In this document: positions 8,919 to 64,000 of the stretch, piece after piece
Numbering within the stretch: the first letter of the stretch is position 1
Layout: every line of letters begins with the position of its first letter
Source: Candidatus Undivivens industriae
Lineage (GTDB): Bacteria > Omnitrophota > Gorgyraeia > Gygaellales > Profunditerraquicolaceae
DNA: 64,000 bases
Assembly (NCBI GenBank): GCA_012514745.1
Contig: JAAYZR010000010.1
Span: 1,401 to 65,400 of the forward strand
Direction of reading: 5' to 3'
Translations under genes and position numbers: made by a program
Notes under the pieces: model-generated
What the model saw: only the letters and a program-made list of their open reading frames with translations
Told to the model about the DNA's origin: nothing
Databases searched by the model: none

Positions 8919-11831
<2,913 letters not shown>

Positions 11832-13985: not shown

Positions 13986-14060
13986 TGGTGCCGAGGGAGG
14001 GAATCGGACCCCCCACGCCGGCCTTTTCAGGGCCGCGCTCTACCACTGAGCTACCTCGGC
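13986..14060 (-). tRNA. tRNA-Phe (GAA)
   Basis: The reverse complement folds as a cloverleaf: GCCGAGG acceptor, anticodon loop CTGAAAA, TTCGATTCC T-loop, and an encoded CCA. Confidence 0.9.
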
Positions 14061-20057: not shown

Positions 20058-20266
20058 AAAAAAAATCCCAACGTAAAAGTTGGGATTTTTCGCAAGTATA
20101 AGCCGATAAAGGTGACAACACAACTTGCTGCCGCACCTTTAACCGGTAGCCCAGCCACCATATTACCCACCTCTTTTGACCGTCTTAGCGGCCTCAACTG
20201 AACGTGATGTAACGTAGGTCTGTGGCTTTGCGCCCCCCGGTTTTCCCGAGGTTTACCTTTATCGGC
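20058..20266 (-). ncRNA. structured RNA of ~209 nt with its own promoter and terminator. It is either a c-di-GMP-I (GEMM)-like riboswitch leader of the GH1 operon or, alternatively, a 6S-like sRNA.
   Basis: A 12-bp stem (GCCGAUAAAGGU / ACCUUUAUCGGC) closes 165 nt. The 5' junction reads GGUAAACC-UCGG-GAAA-ACCGGG-GGGCGCAAAGCCACAGACC, which matches the Vc2-type GEMM core GGCAAACC..GAAA..GGACGCAAAGCC. An intrinsic terminator lies at 20057-20090. The GH1 ATG is ~67 nt further on, in the same orientation. Confidence 0.45.
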
Positions 20267-20273
20267 TACAAAA

Positions 20274-48728: not shown

Positions 48729-48862
48729 TTCCGATTCTCCTTCCCTTTCTATCACCCGCTGCTTTATAAAGACGCGGACACTGTTCAGTTTTTATCAAGT
48801 TTATACATAGTGCAATGTGTACATAAGTTTCTGATAATCGAAAACCGAAATTAGATCGTCCG

Positions 48863-49828
48863 TCAAGTCAAAAGTTTCAACAGGCCGTAAAGCCCGGCGG
48901 TCTTGAATTCCTTCTTGCTGACCGCCTTCTCCATATCCACCTCACTCAGGCTGTCCGAAACCACGCCCACGGCTTTGCCGGTATGCCCTTGCAAAAGAAG
49001 ATTTACCGCCTCTGCTCCCATTCTGGTGGCAAGTATGCGGTCCCTGGCAGAGGGGGATCCTCCTCTCTGCACGTGTCCGAGCACCACCACGCGCGTCTCA
49101 AGATCCGTCATCTCGGTTATGCGGCCGGCGATATCTTCGGCACTGCCGGCTCCTTCCGCGACAATGATTATCCAGCTGATCTTGCCGCGGATGTTTCCTT
49201 CCACGATCTCGTGGCACATAGCGTGGAAATCGAACTCCCTTTCCGGCACCAGGGCCTCTTCTGAGCCGCTGCCCAGCGCCACCTGGAGGCATATATACCC
49301 GGAATCCCGGCCCATCACCTCAACCACGAAGATACGCTCCATGCTGGTGGCCGTATCGCGGATCTTGTCGATCGCCTCCATGGCAGTGTTGACCGCGCTG
49401 TCGGCGCCGATAGTCTCATCTGTGCCGTTGATATCGTTATCTATGGTGCACGGCACGCCGATACAGGGGACTCCCCATTTACGCGCCAGCGCCAAACCTC
49501 CGTGATAAGTGCCGTTGCCTCCCAGAAGCACCAGACCGTCTATCTCATATTTCTTAAGCGTCTCTACGGCGCGTTTCTGCCCGTCTTCCGAAAAGAATTC
49601 CGGGCAGCGCGCGGTCTTCAGGATCGTTCCGCCCCTGTTTATGATGTTTGAGACCGAACGGTGGGTCAACGGTTTCACTTCTTCGTTGATCAAACCGCTG
49701 TAGCCGCGGAATATTCCGAACACTTCCAGATTATGCGCCGCGGCAGACCTGGCCACACTGCGGATGGCCGCGTTCATACCCGGCGCGTCGCCTCCGGACG
49801 TCAAGACGCCGATCCTCTTCAAATTCAA
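48863..49828 (-). CDS. pfkA: ATP-dependent 6-phosphofructokinase
   Basis: Carries [17 protein letters not shown] and MGR motifs. Confidence 0.9.
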
Positions 49829-56950: not shown

Positions 56951-57027
<77 letters not shown>

Positions 57028-57195
57028 AAATCATCCGCAGTGCCGCATCATACGGGCCGCTTTACTTTAAGATTGTCAATTTGAAACACCGCGAAGGGCG
57101 CGGTTTCAGCGCCGTCGAAGTATAATAAACCCGTCACCGAATAAAATCAATACCGTTTTTACGACGGCGCACTGTTCCACCCTTTAAAAAGAAAA

Positions 57196-57277
57196 TGGGC
57201 GGAAGAGGATTTGAACCTCCAAGGGTTGCCCCAGCAGCTCCTAAGGCTGCCGCGTCTGCCAATTTCGCCATCCGCCC
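57196..57277 (-). tRNA. tRNA-Leu (TAG), long variable arm, CCA not encoded
   Basis: The reverse complement gives GGGCGGA acceptor, anticodon loop CTTAGGA, and a long variable arm TGGGGCAACCCTTGG. Confidence 0.85.
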
Positions 57278-57308
57278 GTAGTGCGGTTCTTTAAACAGCG
57301 CGCAGAGC

Positions 57309-57328
57309 CCGCCAAAGTTTCAGTGGCG
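57309..57328. repeat. arm 1 of a 22-bp perfect inverted repeat (CGCCAAAGTTTCAGTGGCGGAC) bracketing tRNA-Lys
   Basis: Exact reverse-complement partner at 57690-57710; each arm is also a local hairpin (CGCCA/UGGCG). Confidence 0.7.
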
Positions 57329-57549
57329 GACGGCCTGATCCCGATTCTCGATTATCAGAAAGTTATGTAACAATTTAGTAGTTTCTGCGCGAACTCTGTT
57401 CGAAAGACACGCCCCCGGCACGCCGGCCGGCGGTCACGGTGTAACGAGCGTATTGTTTTACGTCTTGGGCATGAAGCAAGGCGTTAAAAGAACTTTCCGT
57501 GCCCGGCCGTTCTTAACTCCGCGCTCCCTGTTCAAGACTTGTACAATAA

Positions 57550-57625
57550 TGGTGAGCCACCCGCGACTCGAACGCGGCACACCCACCTTAAAAGGGTGGT
57601 GCTCTACCGGATGAGCTAGTGGCCC
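57550..57625 (-). tRNA. tRNA-Lys (TTT)
   Basis: The reverse complement gives GGGCCAC acceptor, anticodon loop CTTTTAA, GGTTCGAGTCC T-arm, and an encoded CCA. Confidence 0.88.
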
Positions 57626-59655: not shown

Positions 59656-60546
59656 TTACGCCTTTCTTTTATTCTTATCTTCGACCGGCTTGATGCGGGA
59701 CTTCTTTGCCGCTTTAGCTTCCGCGCTCTCCGGTGTCGTGCTCTCGATCAGTTCCTCGATCTCCTTGATCTTGACTTCTTCTTCCGGTTTCACCGCCGGT
59801 TCATCAAGGGCCGCCTGCTGGGCAACGTTCTTCAAAGCCTCCTGATCGGAAAGATAAGAAAGGAATTTCTGCCTGCCTTCCACCACGGCTTCCGCCAGCA
59901 TACTCACGATCACCTTGATGGACTTGGTGGCGTCATCATTCCCGGGTACCGGATAATCGATGGGCGTCGGATCGGAATTGGTATCCACCAGGGCGATTAT
60001 CGGGATACCGAGCTTCAATGCCTCGAGTACTGCCGTATCTTCCTTGTTCGTGTCTATGACTACTACGGCGGCCGGCATCTTCTCCATATTCACGATCCCG
60101 GAGAAGTTCTTCCTGAGCTTCAAGCACTCTTTCTCCAGCCGGGAGACCTCTTTCTTGGTGAGCTTCTCGAACGTCCCGTCAGTGCGCATCTTATCGATTT
60201 CCTTGAGGCGCTTGATGCTCTTTTTAACCGTGGCAAAATTGGTAAGCATACCGCCCGGCCATCTTTCCGTAACGTAATACATCCCGCAGCGCGCCGCATC
60301 CTGGAACACGACTTCCTGGGCCTGTTTCTTTGTCCCGACGAACAGAATCATCTCCCCTTTAGCCGCGGACTCCATCAGGAATTCCCTGGCTCTGTCAAGG
60401 CACTCGCTGGTCTTTTCCAGGTCTATAATGTAGATCCCGCTGCGCTGTCCGAAGATGAACTTCTTCATCTTGGGGTTCCAGCGGGACGTCTTATGACCGA
60501 AATGCACCCCTGCTTCAAGTAACTGCTTTATGGTTTCCGTTGACAA
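59656..60546 (-). CDS. rpsB: 30S ribosomal protein S2 with a Lys/Glu-rich C-terminal extension
   Basis: The LEAGVHFGHKTSRWNPKM S2 signature. Confidence 0.92.
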   Translation of the reverse strand: MSTETIKQLLEAGVHFGHKTSRWNPKMKKFIFGQRSGIYIIDLEKTSECLDRAREFLMESAAKGEMILFVGTKKQAQEVVFQDAARCGMYYVTERWPGGMLTNFATVKKSIKRLKEIDKMRTDGTFEKLTKKEVSRLEKECLKLRKNFSGIVNMEKMPAAVVVIDTNKEDTAVLEALKLGIPIIALVDTNSDPTPIDYPVPGNDDATKSIKVIVSMLAEAVVEGRQKFLSYLSDQEALKNVAQQAALDEPAVKPEEEVKIKEIEELIESTTPESAEAKAAKKSRIKPVEDKNKRKA

Positions 60547-60825
60547 CTTTACTCCTCCTTGCTCGCCGCCTTCACCTGCCCGGGGGCAGCCCGCGTTTCA
60601 GCTTGCGGGATGTAGGAAAGGCTTTGTTAGGATTTTATCCCCACATTGTCTTTGCTTCAATCCGCCGCGCCGGCTTTCAGCCGCCGCGGATTTCTGTTTT
60701 TTGACGGGATAAGCGTGTTTTTCCGCCTGATTCCCAAATTAAACTGTTATTTTAACACAAAAACCCTTTTATGCAATAAAAAATTTTTTGTTCCGGGGAC
60801 ACAATACTTAACTCTTTCACACTGG

Positions 60826-61073
60826 TGAACACCTACCTCTCCTTTAAAGGCAGGGTGTTCCCCGTAAGGGAACACTTGCCCAATTCCCCACAAGGACAGG
60901 GTGTTATCCCGAGGGGAACACTTGCCCAATTCCCCGCAAGGGCAAGGTGTTATTCCCATAGGCTAAGGTATAACACACAAGTGTATACTTAGCCATCCTA
61001 TTGGCTAAAGTACAACCCGGGTTAAAACCCGGTGATTTCTGGGCGAAGGGAAAAGATCTGTAAAAACCGGAGA
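60826..61073. repeat. hairpin-rich structured repeat element, downstream copy (carries an extra 47-nt tandem unit)
   Basis: ~88% identical to 62968-63165. It contains tandem 47-nt units, each a 14-bp hairpin (GGCAAGGUGUUCCC / GGGAACACUUGCC) plus further hairpins including CCCGGGUU-UUAA-CCCGGG. Compensatory changes are visible between the two copies. Confidence 0.75.
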
Positions 61074-61128
61074 GCTCTGCGGTTTGAGGAAACCCCATAA
61101 CCCGATACCAAAGAACTGCCTTTTATTA

Positions 61129-62919
61129 TCACTCCGCTAATTCCTGCATCCGGCAAAGCCTGTTGTACAGGCCTTTGTTCTTTATCAATTCTTCGTGCGT
61201 GCCGATCTCAACGATCCTGCCGTTCTCAAGCGCGATTATCCGGTCTGCGTGGCGCACCGTGGAAAGCCTGTGCGCGATAAGCAAAACCGTACGCCCGCTT
61301 ATCAGACGGTCTATCGCCTGCTGAACCAGTCTCTCCGATTCTGCGTCCAGTTGGGAAGTAGCTTCATCCAGGATCAGTATAGGCGGATTCTTAAGCAGGG
61401 CCCTGGCGATCGCCAGCCTCTGCCTTTCTCCGCCGGAAATCATCATACCGCGGTCGCCTATCACAGTATCGTAGCCCTTGGGAAAACGCATGATGAAATC
61501 ATGCGCGCAGGCCTGTGTGGCCGCCGCGATGACCTGTTCAAAAGATGCTTGAGGCTGGCCGTAGGATATGTTGGCTTTAATGGTATCGTTGAAAAGTATG
61601 GTCTCCTGGCTCACTATACCTATATTGCTTCGCAAAGAAACGATGCTGAAGTCCCTGATGTCCCTGCCGTCTATCAATATAGAACCCTGCTGGGGGTCAT
61701 AAAAACGCGGCAGCAAATCCAGCAAAGTGGTTTTGCCTGCCCCGCTGGGGCCTACGACCGCCACGACCTCACCTTTAGAGACCTTGAAACTAACGTTGTC
61801 TATGACCTTTTTCTTGTCGTAGGCGAAATGCACGCCGTTAAATTCTATTCTTTGTGCCAGCCCCCGCATTTCAACAGCCCCCGGTTTTTCCGCGATGGAA
61901 GGGACGGCGTCCAGCACTTCGTATATACGGATGCCGGCGGCAACCGCCTGCTGGTTAAGGGAATTAACGGCGCTGAGCTTCTTGAACGGCCTGATCAAAG
62001 AGAGTAAAGAAGCCAAAAAAAGCCCCAGGATACCGAAAGAGAGCTTGCCGGCTATCACCTCCCTGCCTCCCCAGAAAAATACGAACACCCCGGCCAGGCA
62101 TCCCAAAAACTCCGTGGCCGGGCTCAAAATGAGCGTCCGTTTTATCGACTTCATGGAGATACGGAAATAATCCTGGTTGGCGGCGGCAAACCGTTTCTTC
62201 TCGTATTCTTCCATGTTGAACGCCTTGACTATCCGCGCGCCGATTATCGTTTCGTAAAGCAAGGAATTTATGTCGGCCATCTTCTCCTGCCCCCGCCGGG
62301 AAAGTTTACGGAGGACCCGCCCGACCTTTATTATAGGAAAACTGATAAGCGGGCAGATCACCAGTATTATCAAAGCGAGCTTCGCGTAGATGAAAAACGC
62401 CATTACCGCGAAAATCACTACCTGCAGGCTCTGATATACCAGGTCCGTGGAACCGTAAGAAACGGCGTTCTCCACCAGCCTGACGTCGTTGGTTATACGG
62501 GAGATCATCTCGCCGCCGCGTTTATGCGTGAAGTAATCCAGCGAAAGCGAGTGGAACTTGGAATAAAGAAGCGACCGGATATCCCTTATCACTCTTTGTC
62601 CGAGATCGGACATAAGATAACTCTGCAGAAAGGTAAAAACCTCTTTGAGAAAAAAAAGCACAATGATGAAAACAGCCAGATAATTGAGCAGGGTCTGCTG
62701 AGGCATCCCGTTCAGCATCACGACGAAATCGGCCAGAAAACCCGGGACTTTCCCGGGCAAAACGATCTGTTTGTTCGTCATCACCTTATCCGCCAGCGGC
62801 ACCATCATCGCCAGCGATACCCCGTCGAAAAGAGCGGAAATCGCCATGCAGAATACCGCCGCCGTAAAAAGCGCCCAGTAAGGTTTTACGAAACGAAACA
62901 GCCTTAAATAATCTCTCAT
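61129..62919 (-). CDS. ABC transporter, fused permease/ATP-binding (MsbA-like lipid A / lipid exporter family)
   Basis: Six-TM domain followed by an NBD with Walker A (GPSGAGKTT), the signature LSGGERQRLAIARAL, and Walker B (ILILDEATS). The start is set at MRDYLRL (62919); the ORF-track N-terminus at 63105 is a translation of the repeat element. Confidence 0.85.
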   Translation of the reverse strand: MRDYLRLFRFVKPYWALFTAAVFCMAISALFDGVSLAMMVPLADKVMTNKQIVLPGKVPGFLADFVVMLNGMPQQTLLNYLAVFIIVLFFLKEVFTFLQSYLMSDLGQRVIRDIRSLLYSKFHSLSLDYFTHKRGGEMISRITNDVRLVENAVSYGSTDLVYQSLQVVIFAVMAFFIYAKLALIILVICPLISFPIIKVGRVLRKLSRRGQEKMADINSLLYETIIGARIVKAFNMEEYEKKRFAAANQDYFRISMKSIKRTLILSPATEFLGCLAGVFVFFWGGREVIAGKLSFGILGLFLASLLSLIRPFKKLSAVNSLNQQAVAAGIRIYEVLDAVPSIAEKPGAVEMRGLAQRIEFNGVHFAYDKKKVIDNVSFKVSKGEVVAVVGPSGAGKTTLLDLLPRFYDPQQGSILIDGRDIRDFSIVSLRSNIGIVSQETILFNDTIKANISYGQPQASFEQVIAAATQACAHDFIMRFPKGYDTVIGDRGMMISGGERQRLAIARALLKNPPILILDEATSQLDAESERLVQQAIDRLISGRTVLLIAHRLSTVRHADRIIALENGRIVEIGTHEELIKNKGLYNRLCRMQELAE

Positions 62920-62967
62920 ATTGTTAAGAAAAATGTGGTTCCCCGGACTGATTCCTGACAAGCCTTG

Positions 62968-63165
62968 GTAACCAACCTGCCTCTCCTTCAAGGCAAGGTG
63001 TTCCCCGCAAGGGAACACTTGCCCAATTCCCCACAAGGGCAAGGTGTTATTCCTATTGGCCAAGGTATAACACAGCGGTGTATACTTGGCCTTCCGATAG
63101 GCCAAGGTACAACCCGGGTTTTAACCCGGGGATTTATGGGCAAGGGGATTAAAAAACCGGGAAAT
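62968..63165. repeat. hairpin-rich structured repeat element, upstream copy (between the msbA-like start and lpxB)
   Basis: Same element as 60826-61073, with one 47-nt unit instead of two. Confidence 0.75.
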
Positions 63166-63584
63166 GGTATCGTCCCCCGGCATCATCACGAACATATAGC
63201 TAAAATATACTAACACACTACCTTCCGGCTGTCGAGAAATAAAACCAAATAGAATTGGGGAGTAGAACATAGCCGATATGGGGTAAAAATAAGGCCTCAA
63301 GAACTAAAGAAAGTGAAGCCGAATATTTTTATCGAGTCCCCGCATATACTCCCGGCCTCGCGCACTGTTCTATCTTCCTGAACTCTATCTTATTCACTTA
63401 TCGCCCCAAGCTGTCCGTTCCGGACGGATGAAACTTTCCCCGCCGCGAAGGATAACGGCCGAAGCTCCTTTTTCCCCCGGCTTTTCCCCCGGCGGCAAAA
63501 TACATTTGCCAAGGGAACCCGTATTTGCTATGATAATGCTCGTCTTAACCGATAATGTCATAACACCGACCGCAGCGCCTTATA

Positions 63585-64000
63585 ATGAAAAACACCTCTC
63601 CCAGAATACTGGTCGTCTCCGGAGAAGCATCCGGAGATATGTACGCAGCCGAGCTTATCAAGGAGATCCGCAAACATCTCCCTTCCACCCATTTCTACGG
63701 ACTGGGAGGAGAGAAGTCCAGGCTTGCCGGCATGGAAATCATCGCGGAAATGACCGCTCTCTCCGTAGTGGGCTTTGCGGAAGTATTACAAAAACTGCAC
63801 AAAATCAAAGCCGTTTTTAATAAAATCCTCTCTGTCTCCTCCTCCCTGCGCCCTGATGCCGCCATACTTATAGACTACCCCGGGTTCAATCTAAGACTGG
63901 CGGCTAAACTGAAAAAAATCGGTATCCCGGTCATTTATTACGTCAGTCCGCAGATATGGGCGTGGGGAGCCGGCCGCATAAAAACCATCCGCCGCAACGT
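63585..64000 (+). CDS. lpxB: lipid-A-disaccharide synthase (N-terminal part; continues beyond the window end)
   Basis: The protein starts MKNTSPRILVVSGEASGDMYAAELIKEI, matching the LpxB N-terminus (GETSGD motif). No stop lies inside the window, so it is absent from the ORF track. Confidence 0.8.
   Translation, partial: MKNTSPRILVVSGEASGDMYAAELIKEIRKHLPSTHFYGLGGEKSRLAGMEIIAEMTALSVVGFAEVLQKLHKIKAVFNKILSVSSSLRPDAAILIDYPGFNLRLAAKLKKIGIPVIYYVSPQIWAWGAGRIKTIRRN

Follow-up and report, generated by a model that had tools for sequence, protein, structure and literature searches.

BOX elements of Streptococcus pneumoniae and S. suis are composite repeats of the form boxA-(boxB)n-boxC, and in the pneumococcus they are modular, with a number of boxB units that varies between strains (PMC3049150). 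Clusters of repetitive extragenic palindromes (REPs), REPINs and bacterial interspersed mosaic elements (BIMEs) are likewise known as small interspersed hairpin repeats (PMC3116915, PMC3733652, PMC3479197), the defining mark of a REP being a GTAG or CGTC tag that stays unpaired at one end of its palindrome (Di Nocera 2013, PMC3733652). The small mosaic interspersed repeats described here, from an uncultured bacterium of the Candidatus Omnitrophota, form a new family of this known kind. The DNA analysed, hereafter the window, is a 64-kb stretch of the Candidatus Undivivens industriae contig JAAYZR010000010.1, which matches the Joint Genome Institute (JGI) metagenome contig Ga0123335_1000776. 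In it, two copies of a structured repeat, copy A (60791-61055) and copy B (62973-63152), bracket an msbA-like ABC exporter gene that is itself outside the repeat family. We consider it likely that A and B are independent members of a lineage-specific, small, non-coding and mosaic interspersed repeat family; they are not an msbA-specific regulatory or mobilising device. The family is a dispersed, intergenic and modular hairpin repeat, it is restricted to one lineage, and the number of its modules varies at fixed loci.

In architecture the family is closest to BOX. Both are small, non-coding, intergenic, dispersed and composite, both are predicted to fold into stem-loops, and both place end modules (of more than one kind) around a strain-variable, head-to-tail run of internal modules of ~45 nt. 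In unit type it is closest to REPs, REPINs and BIMEs, with which it shares imperfect palindromes of 20-40 nt that have a bulged stem and are extragenic, multi-copy and lineage-specific. As in REPs and BIMEs, the units occur singly or clustered, often in tandem, as a mosaic of unit types and linkers, and their subfamilies differ by compensated stem changes. The family also resembles MITEs (miniature transposable elements with inverted repeats, such as Correia/NEMIS, RUP and Nezha) in being short, non-autonomous-looking, highly base-paired and intergenic, and in that such elements can carry promoter- or terminator-like sequence.

Copies A and B are direct repeats made of hairpin modules and are 85-91% identical, blastn and gapped alignment giving 85% over 161 nt and 91% over 77 nt. 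A repeat search of the window returned a 155-nt direct pair (60897-61051 and 62994-63148) of 84% ungapped identity as well as a 67-nt repeat family with 46-nt spacing, and copy A has an extra 46-nt unit relative to B. The 32-nt hairpin GGCAAGGTGTTCCC-CGCAA-GGGAACACTTGCC is exact at 62992-63023 and carries two mismatches at 60849-60880; both this hairpin and a 21-mer taken from it occur at only these two places in the window, the chance expectation being none. When folded, both copies were more stable than shuffled sequence on both strands (z = -3.5 to -4.5). The preliminary description of this DNA, made from the letters alone, had reported direct structured repeats flanking the msbA-like gene, and this is borne out. 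Its boundaries were nearly right, copy A starting with a 21-nt motif at 60791 and the first module of copy B at 62973, with an overlapping terminator-like hairpin that reaches 63181. It had also given 47-nt units with a 14-bp hairpin; the hairpin is present, while the period is 46 nt and the stem consists of 13 bp and one bulged G. A CCCGGG hairpin reported for both copies was located at 61016-61032 and 63113-63130. Reading of the sequence confirmed the cited compensatory change as a true double change, GGCCAAGG...CTTGGCC in B standing against GGCTAAGG...CTTAGCC in A (GGCCAAG/CTTGGCC vs GGCTAAG/CTTAGCC). The exchange of CCTATTGG and CCGATAGG between hairpin arms, offered as a further example, is compensatory in part, with 7-8 of 8 pairs formed with the swap and 6 of 8 without it.

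An exact 20-mer from the repeat unit matched 17 metagenome loci (denoted by L numbers), of which 14 are true. The true loci match the window in composition (GC content 0.52-0.58, tetranucleotide r = 0.80-0.97); at the three chance-match loci the tetranucleotide correlation was below 0.32, and L004 and L020 were discarded as chance matches with different composition and no modules. A blastn comparison, as proposed in the preliminary description, showed at least nine separate sites in addition to A and B on the metagenome contigs; sites were counted after overlapping and orthologous contigs had been collapsed, and copies per genome are a lower bound. These sites lie in L009, in L017/L011/L015/L019 (two sites 4.4 kb apart), in L012/L013, L007/L010, L008/L016 and L014/L018, with solitary modules in L016 and L010. 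Every site of the family is intergenic. The neighbours are UbiA, an Opp-type ABC permease and binding protein, PGK/TatD, a pilin-like gene, chorismate synthase/SNase, radical SAM/tRNA, YebC, RNase H, ABC-F/FIST and DprA, so that the same modules adjoin many unrelated genes, and they do so in both orientations. Pfam scans of 20 flanking genes revealed no transposase.

Comparison among the sites shows that the pair in the window is not a closed unit. Over its left 94 nt, A has 96.8% identity with L009 and 90.9% with B; over its left 114 nt, B has 93.9% identity with L009. The left halves of the two copies are thus closer to L009 than to each other, which makes A and B ordinary members of the family rather than a private duplication. 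Array length varies at fixed positions between near-identical strains with unchanged flanks: L013 has three 91-nt units more than L012, L007 differs from L010 by several modules, and the orthologous array of L005, a 97.5%-identical strain, holds one 46-nt unit more than copy B. Contigs are broken within the repeats in at least two cases, L017 beginning inside an array and L008 finishing inside one, and such breaks are usual at multi-copy repeats. No Rfam match at the gathering threshold was found within 60400-63700, the best E value overlapping the elements being 1.5 (20 bits vs a gathering score of 61). Rfam CRISPR-DR matches appeared only at E > 6 and outside the element, and collections of phage, plasmid and viral sequences gave no match to it.

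The building block of the arrays is a module of ~30 nt that reads YAC, a stem of 5-7 bp, a loop of 8-12 nt, the complementary stem, a bulged G and GTR. Three loop types occur: AATTCCCCACAA, TTCCGATT, written (C/T)TCCGATT, and TCTCCTTTAA. Modules are linked head to tail via short tip hairpins of four types (TTCCC-N5-GGGAA, TCGC-ACGA-GCGA, TCAC-ACNG-GTGA and ACAC-N4-GTGT). The tips are less regular, an exact complement of the 4-nt core being present in 19 of 30, and outer GTG...CAC bases extend them into long hairpins, so that each arm can pair either leftward or rightward. Each array has a single polarity, with the bulged G always in the 3' arm and one strand always carrying the TCC of the loops. 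Composite periods of 40 nt (L007), 46 nt (window copy A), 91 nt (L013) and 127 nt (L017) are not multiples of three, and overlapping open reading frames are without a Pfam match; the arrays are thus non-coding. They range from ~90 to 540 nt in length with a GC content of 0.47-0.53 as compared with 0.54 for the genome, and their hairpins are also stable as single-stranded DNA (-7 to -12 kcal/mol).

At its left end an array may carry the hairpin GGAGCCCCTCGGGCTAAAGCCCGCGGCTCC (L009 and L017). The right-end module RE1, a CCCGGG hairpin followed by GATTTCTGGGCGAGGGGATTAA, closes A, B and the L009 array and is solitary at L016 2173-2212 and L010 6340-6375, while RE2, present at both L017 sites, ends in the 21-mer TTAAGTATTGTGTCCCCGGAA. 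This 21-mer is 100% identical at six independent loci and is part of the module kit of the family. It closes arrays at L017 155 and 4847, stands alone at L013 742, L012 926 and L016 9647, and is inverted at the left edge of A relative to the right ends of the L017 arrays; at both ends of one and the same array it was never found. The 21-mer is usually bracketed as TTAA...GGAA-TTA(A), and two of its instances directly adjoin a convergent gene at its stop codon. It may represent a lone end of a mobile element or else be a motif of its own. Each site has its own combination drawn from three types of loop, four of tip and at least three end modules.

A grammar scan for YAC-stem-loop-stem'-RGTR, in which the sequence of stem and loop was left unspecified, gave 30 matches that fell only in known arrays (4 in the window and 26 at other loci), no module in 78 kb from relatives, and an average of 0.3 or fewer in shuffles. 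These 30 perfect instances, of 27-33 nt with 9-10 bp stems, lie in 11 arrays, all intergenic, and every one of them has TCC in its loop. Picking of modules by loop patterns of 8-10 nt across whole loci was too noisy, with matches in coding DNA everywhere, and only the 12-nt L1 loops were used, for the mismatch count given below.

Stem covariation was analysed in 23 distinct arm pairs joined by a fixed TTTT linker, the arms being set by outer anchors and not by complementarity; L005_33, whose arms pair perfectly over 8 bp in a shifted register and with no bulge, was left out of the alignment. It was found that 93% of stem cells form standard pairs, compared with 20-52% in slid controls, and that 6 of 10 stem pairs have changes on both sides. 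Double-change cells numbered 30, as against 10.4 in column shuffles, none of the 500 shuffles reaching 30. The stem types are TTGCCC/GGGCAA, CTGCCC/GGGCAG, TTGGCC/GGCCAA, TTAGCC/GGCTAA, CTGCC/GGCAG, CGAAC/GTTCG and TTGGCT/AGCCAA. As the modules fall into few subfamilies, the compensatory events that are independent of one another are few. Arms can also become symmetric without selection through template switching within palindromes (quasipalindrome mutagenesis). The suggestion that compensatory change proves selection on structure was therefore too strong, since template switching, or descent from a few subfamilies that were symmetric to begin with, would give the same pattern.

Strand preference was examined in several ways. 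Mismatches in L1-type stems are about equally G.T and A.C (3 vs 4), a frequency that favours neither RNA strand. Folding energies had the complement of the window plus strand as the more stable in 10 of 11 arrays; this test was set aside, as that strand is also G-richer, and the difference is probably compositional. The strand bearing TCC is the locally C-rich one in 7/9 sites (5/7 regions), and this agreement of array orientation with local GC skew or gene direction is not significant.

Against this anatomy, the likeness to described systems can be delimited. The BOX-type arrangement is found here as the GGAGCCCCTCGGGCTAAAGCCCGCGGCTCC left end, the RE1 and RE2 right ends and strain differences of one 46-nt unit and three 91-nt units, by analogy and not homology: BOX, likened by architecture, belongs to another phylum and has no sequence relationship to the family. 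BOX also has defined terminal inverted repeats and target-site duplications, whereas none are definable here, and it differs from the three loop types, covarying stems and interlocked, either-way pairing arms of the present arrays. The tag that defines REPs is absent, with no GTAG/CTAC or CGTC/GACG abutting the stems and all module feet reading YAC (5') and G-GTR (3'). Unlike in REPINs, the units are not inverted doublets, all modules in an array having the same polarity, and of the BIME traits the mosaic with distinct linkers matches whereas alternating orientation does not, the arrays running head to tail. Three of the nine sites lie between divergent genes, in contrast to REPs, which favour unidirectional or convergent pairs. 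MITEs are of fixed length with terminal inverted repeats and target-site duplications, whereas the arrays described here vary severalfold in length, have heterogeneous ends and are not AT-rich. A CRISPR array is excluded, as the preliminary description had already held, because the units abut without unique spacers. Also excluded were an integron cassette with attC, as the neighbours of msbA are constant at 89% and 68% identity, and an Rfam riboswitch, leader or small RNA family, no covariance-model match coming near the gathering score.

The msbA locus could be compared with that of relatives; homologues of MsbA are listed under the source name Candidatus Omnitrophota/Omnitrophica. The gene order lpxB<>msbA-rpsB-tsf-pyrH-frr is the same in relatives with 88-89% (L021-L026) and 68% identical MsbA; the 68% relative is known by its gene table, and DNA was read for the 88-89% relatives only. 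A DNA scan found no module in the loci of the latter, which have unrelated sequence in both spacers and a conserved rpsB leader proper. In the lpxB-msbA spacer, the msbA -35 and extended -10 boxes are kept in L021 and L025, similarity ends right after the -10 box and it resumes only ~30 nt before the msbA ATG, the variable stretch between the two in the window being copy B. The location of copy B downstream of the conserved msbA promoter-like site places it inside the msbA 5' untranslated region (5' UTR), and judging from this alignment it is very probably transcribed as part of it. The lpxB promoter lies beyond copy B, so that B is not in the lpxB transcript. Pattern matching also gave a terminator-like hairpin with a T-run, which lies a short way downstream of the msbA promoter and overlaps copy B at the end that faces this promoter.

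In the msbA-rpsB spacer, likeness to the relatives starts at ...CCGGAA-T-run-TTGCAT-16-TAAAAT and runs through the well-conserved rpsB leader. The rpsB promoter-like site, which a consensus scan had missed as its -35 box matches at 3/6 positions only, is located between copy A and rpsB; copy A, which fills the variable stretch 3' of the msbA stop codon, is thus upstream of the promoter and not in the rpsB leader. Of the two 5' leader positions assigned in the preliminary description, that of B therefore stands and that of A does not. The msbA 5' UTR of the relatives holds a different hairpin repeat of ~43 nt, GTGCGCTGTTAAATAAGTCCTTTAAACAGCGCAC, and this UTR appears to be colonised by different repeats in different lineages. 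Sites of the GTGCGCTGTTAAATAAGTCCTTTAAACAGCGCAC repeat are at L021 9796-9838, 15401-15442 and 17565-17596, L025 17368-17410 and 15186-15227, and L014 10741-10785; it recurs at other intergenic sites in the relatives, occurs in the window's own lineage (L014) and is not found in the window itself. In L025, the lpxB-msbA spacer (9660-9720) carries about four tandem copies of CATTAAGGG(G/C) immediately upstream of the msbA -35 box; the other relatives lack them.

These comparisons bear on the other ways in which the two copies might be explained. Cis-regulatory leader RNAs dedicated to msbA and to rpsB-tsf-pyrH-frr would account for the position of B, which has the msbA start codon on one side and a conserved promoter-like site on the other, for its strong folding (z about -3.5) and for the terminator-like hairpin on the msbA-sense strand. 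However, the position of A upstream of the conserved rpsB promoter largely refutes such a role for rpsB, the 89% MsbA relatives differ entirely in both spacers while conserving the rpsB leader, and the same modules, which have no Rfam match, stand beside many unrelated genes in both orientations; dedicated leaders are very unlikely. The occurrence of many copies at unrelated intergenic sites likewise disposes of an msbA-specific element, and favours the REP/MITE-like, genome-specific family that had headed the three candidates of the preliminary description. Another of these, direct repeats acting as recombination sites that mobilise an msbA cassette, draws on two co-oriented copies of 85-91% identity that bracket a single gene, between which homologous recombination could in principle delete or amplify msbA. 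Yet the conserved gene order at 89% and 68% MsbA identity and the element-free 88-89% relatives, in which msbA is present at the same locus, indicate that msbA is not a cassette. As the preliminary description had noted for transposases, the precomputed Pfam table lists neither integrase nor transposase in the surrounding 17 kb or so, no attC-like R'/R'' boxes were seen on reading the repeats, and many sites of the family bracket no gene. A cassette is refuted as the origin of the gene, and its probability is close to negligible.

A simple local duplication of a spacer segment, with neither family nor function behind it, would fit the 2.1-kb distance and shared orientation of A and B, and also their complete right-hand architecture (H2 long hairpin, L2, RE1), which is common to these two alone. 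As the whole story it is refuted by the nine or more other sites that carry the same modules, by the left halves, each nearer to L009 than to the other, and by the presence of RE1 elsewhere, including on its own, and we hold it to be extremely improbable. More room is left for arrays that are, or have become, functional multi-hairpin nucleic acids, namely a scaffold showing a conserved loop on covarying stems, which would serve as decoys or sponges for a loop-binding factor, as small RNAs, or as substrates of a hairpin-recognising enzyme that works without the GTAG/CGTC tag. The loop-blind scan, with TCC in 30/30 modules while stems covary, is consistent with this. The loop motif YUCC resembles an anti-Shine-Dalgarno sequence, and GGAR on the other strand resembles a Shine-Dalgarno or CsrA-binding site; with TCC on the locally C-rich strand at most sites, read-through transcripts would mostly carry GGA loops. 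Inside the H2 module of copy B there is a sigma-70-like promoter, a pattern match only (TGGCCA-18-TATACT with TG extension, 63057-63086, +), after which come the hairpins of L2 and RE1, the latter with a U-rich tail (63113-63152); this arrangement could give a two-hairpin transcript of ~55 nt. On the other side, the orientation bias is not significant, the mismatches favour neither RNA strand, and the arrays are absent from close relatives and variable between strains. A tblastn search, a weak test, found no CsrA gene in the sequence searched (a 29-aa match with E = 0.009 inside a long open reading frame was rejected), and the conserved loop could equally be the recognition element of a mobilising enzyme or reflect shared ancestry. 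We therefore regard a function of the arrays in themselves as unlikely.

Several points weigh against a mobile, interspersed family as the explanation of A and B. The ends of the arrays are heterogeneous, and in none of them could a consistent terminal inverted repeat or target-site duplication be defined. There are only two sites in the 64-kb window, and among GTDB representative genomes the exact 20-mer had one match only, a chance one in a Sphingobacterium coding region. A mobilising enzyme was sought by tblastn with the E. coli sequence of the REP-associated tyrosine transposase (RAYT) YafM and by a scan for HUH/Y motifs; nothing was found in the ~64-kb window and the loci, a small part of the genome, which makes this a weak test. 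No clean empty site was recovered, so that insertion as such is inferred. Both the invariant TCC of the loop and the bracketing of one gene by two copies in the same orientation, with a parallel in the L017 arrays 4.4 kb apart, could point to a selected function.

For the interspersed repeat family that we favour, a mechanism can be proposed. Modules would be gained and lost by slipped-strand or unequal recombination between the units of 40-127 nt. Our best guess for the spread to new intergenic sites is a trans-acting enzyme that would recognise the hairpins, as in REP/RAYT or MITE/insertion sequence pairs, or else recombination. Local copying between nearby sites is suggested by neighbours that share end module and orientation (RE1 in A and B, RE2 at both L017 sites), and it may explain the shared end modules of such sites. 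Effects on neighbouring genes would probably be by-products. Copy B would add ~200 nt of strongly folding RNA and a terminator-like hairpin to the msbA 5' UTR. Copy A, after the msbA stop and upstream of the rpsB promoter, could terminate, insulate or 3'-stabilise; as its RE1 is terminator-like on both strands, msbA transcription may be ended or insulated by it before the rpsB promoter is reached. The features of the locus are collected in Table 1.

Table 1. Positions in the window of the two repeat copies, their modules and the genes and promoter-like sites around them.
Feature	Position	Strand	Remarks
rpsB, 296 aa, TTG start after AAGGAGGAG	59656-60546	-	Pfam Ribosomal_S2 2e-94
rpsB promoter-like site, TTGCAT-16-TAAAAT + TG extension	60749-60776	-	conserved block in window, L021, L023, L025
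21-nt motif TTAAGTATTGTGTCCCCGGAA	60791-60811	-	left edge of copy A; ends 15 nt upstream of rpsB -35 box
Copy A array, head-to-tail hairpin modules	60815-61012	+	
Copy A, tip hairpin	60815-60829	+	
Copy A, big-loop module L3	60830-60857	+	
Copy A, long hairpin, first	60849-60880	+	
Copy A, L1 module, imperfect	60873-60903	+	
Copy A, long hairpin, second	60894-60926	+	
Copy A, L1 module, second	60919-60949	+	
Copy A, H2 long hairpin	60961-60994	+	
Copy A, L2 module	60986-61012	+	
Copy A, right-end module RE1, CCCGGGTTAAAACCCGG hairpin then GATTTCTGGGCGAAGGGA	61016-61055	+	terminator-like on both strands
msbA-like ABC exporter gene, 596 aa	61129-62919	-	Pfam ABC_membrane 8e-48, ABC_tran 4e-35
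Copy B array	62973-63109	+	
Copy B, L3-like module	62973-63000	+	
Copy B, long hairpin	62992-63023	+	
Copy B, L1 module	63016-63046	+	
Copy B, H2 long hairpin	63058-63091	+	
Copy B, L2 module	63083-63109	+	
Copy B, right-end module RE1, CCCGGGTTTTAACCCGGG hairpin then GATTTATGGGCAAGGGGATTAA	63113-63152	+	
Terminator-like hairpin + T-run, GCCGGGGGACGATACCATTTCCCGGT-TTTTTT	63151-63181	-	msbA-sense; pattern match only
msbA promoter-like site, TCGACA-17-TAGTAT + TG extension	63207-63235	-	conserved in relatives
lpxB promoter-like site, TTGCCA-17-TATGAT + TG extension	63506-63534	+	matching TTGCCA-17-TATTAT readable in L021
lpxB start	63585	+	divergent from msbA

The rpsB gene is followed by tsf, pyrH and frr. 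A JGI-called start that would shorten its product to 270 aa was rejected, the alignment of relatives keeping the TTG at 60546 with AAGGAGGAG before it. Unlike the spacer upstream of the promoter, the rpsB 5' leader (60547-60748, -) is strongly conserved with L021 and L025; it includes a second promoter-like site (60660-60632) as well as several GC-rich hairpins that are themselves conserved. No Rfam match was found for it and no covariation with three sequences; it is a candidate S2 autoregulatory leader.

Elsewhere in the window, a c-di-GMP-I riboswitch aptamer (RF01051) was identified at 20142-20267 (-) with 59.7 bits vs a gathering score of 35, and a PilZ-domain gene lies just past the right end of the window in L001. 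In L021 (1-7346) and L023 (1-7316), a giant called gene that runs over the locus end, with products of 35,407 and 35,893 aa, is located upstream of PilZ-L27-lpxB; the equivalent region of our genome is beyond the right end of the window. A 46-nt inverted pair (48820-48865 and 57324-57369), 80% complementary, contains CGATTCTCGATTATCAGAAA(C/G)TTATGTA, one of its arms being between tRNA-Leu and tRNA-Lys. The CGATTCTCGATTATCAGAAA motif also directly abuts the L014 array (10790-10840), and the pair looks like a second dispersed repeat in the same genome. The window also holds tRNA-Phe(GAA) at 13986-14060 and, downstream of frr, a cluster of tRNA-Gly(GCC), tRNA-Leu(TAG) and tRNA-Lys(TTT) (56951-57625, -). 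The minus strand carries most genes of the window, over which plus-strand GC skew is uniformly about -0.10.

Small interspersed repeats are hardly described in Omnitrophota, and literature searches on the phylum turned up no paper with a title or abstract on such repeats. The arrays break metagenome assemblies, and their strain-level variation in length could serve as a typing marker. For annotators of metagenome-assembled genomes, they are not riboswitches, CRISPR remnants or cassette boundaries. The module grammar, with its covarying stems, invariant loop TCC and bulged G, offers a concrete starting point for identifying whatever enzyme or factor recognises the hairpins, if there is one. To the bacterium itself, the arrays bring long structured segments into the 5' UTRs and promoter-proximal DNA of essential genes such as msbA and rpsB.

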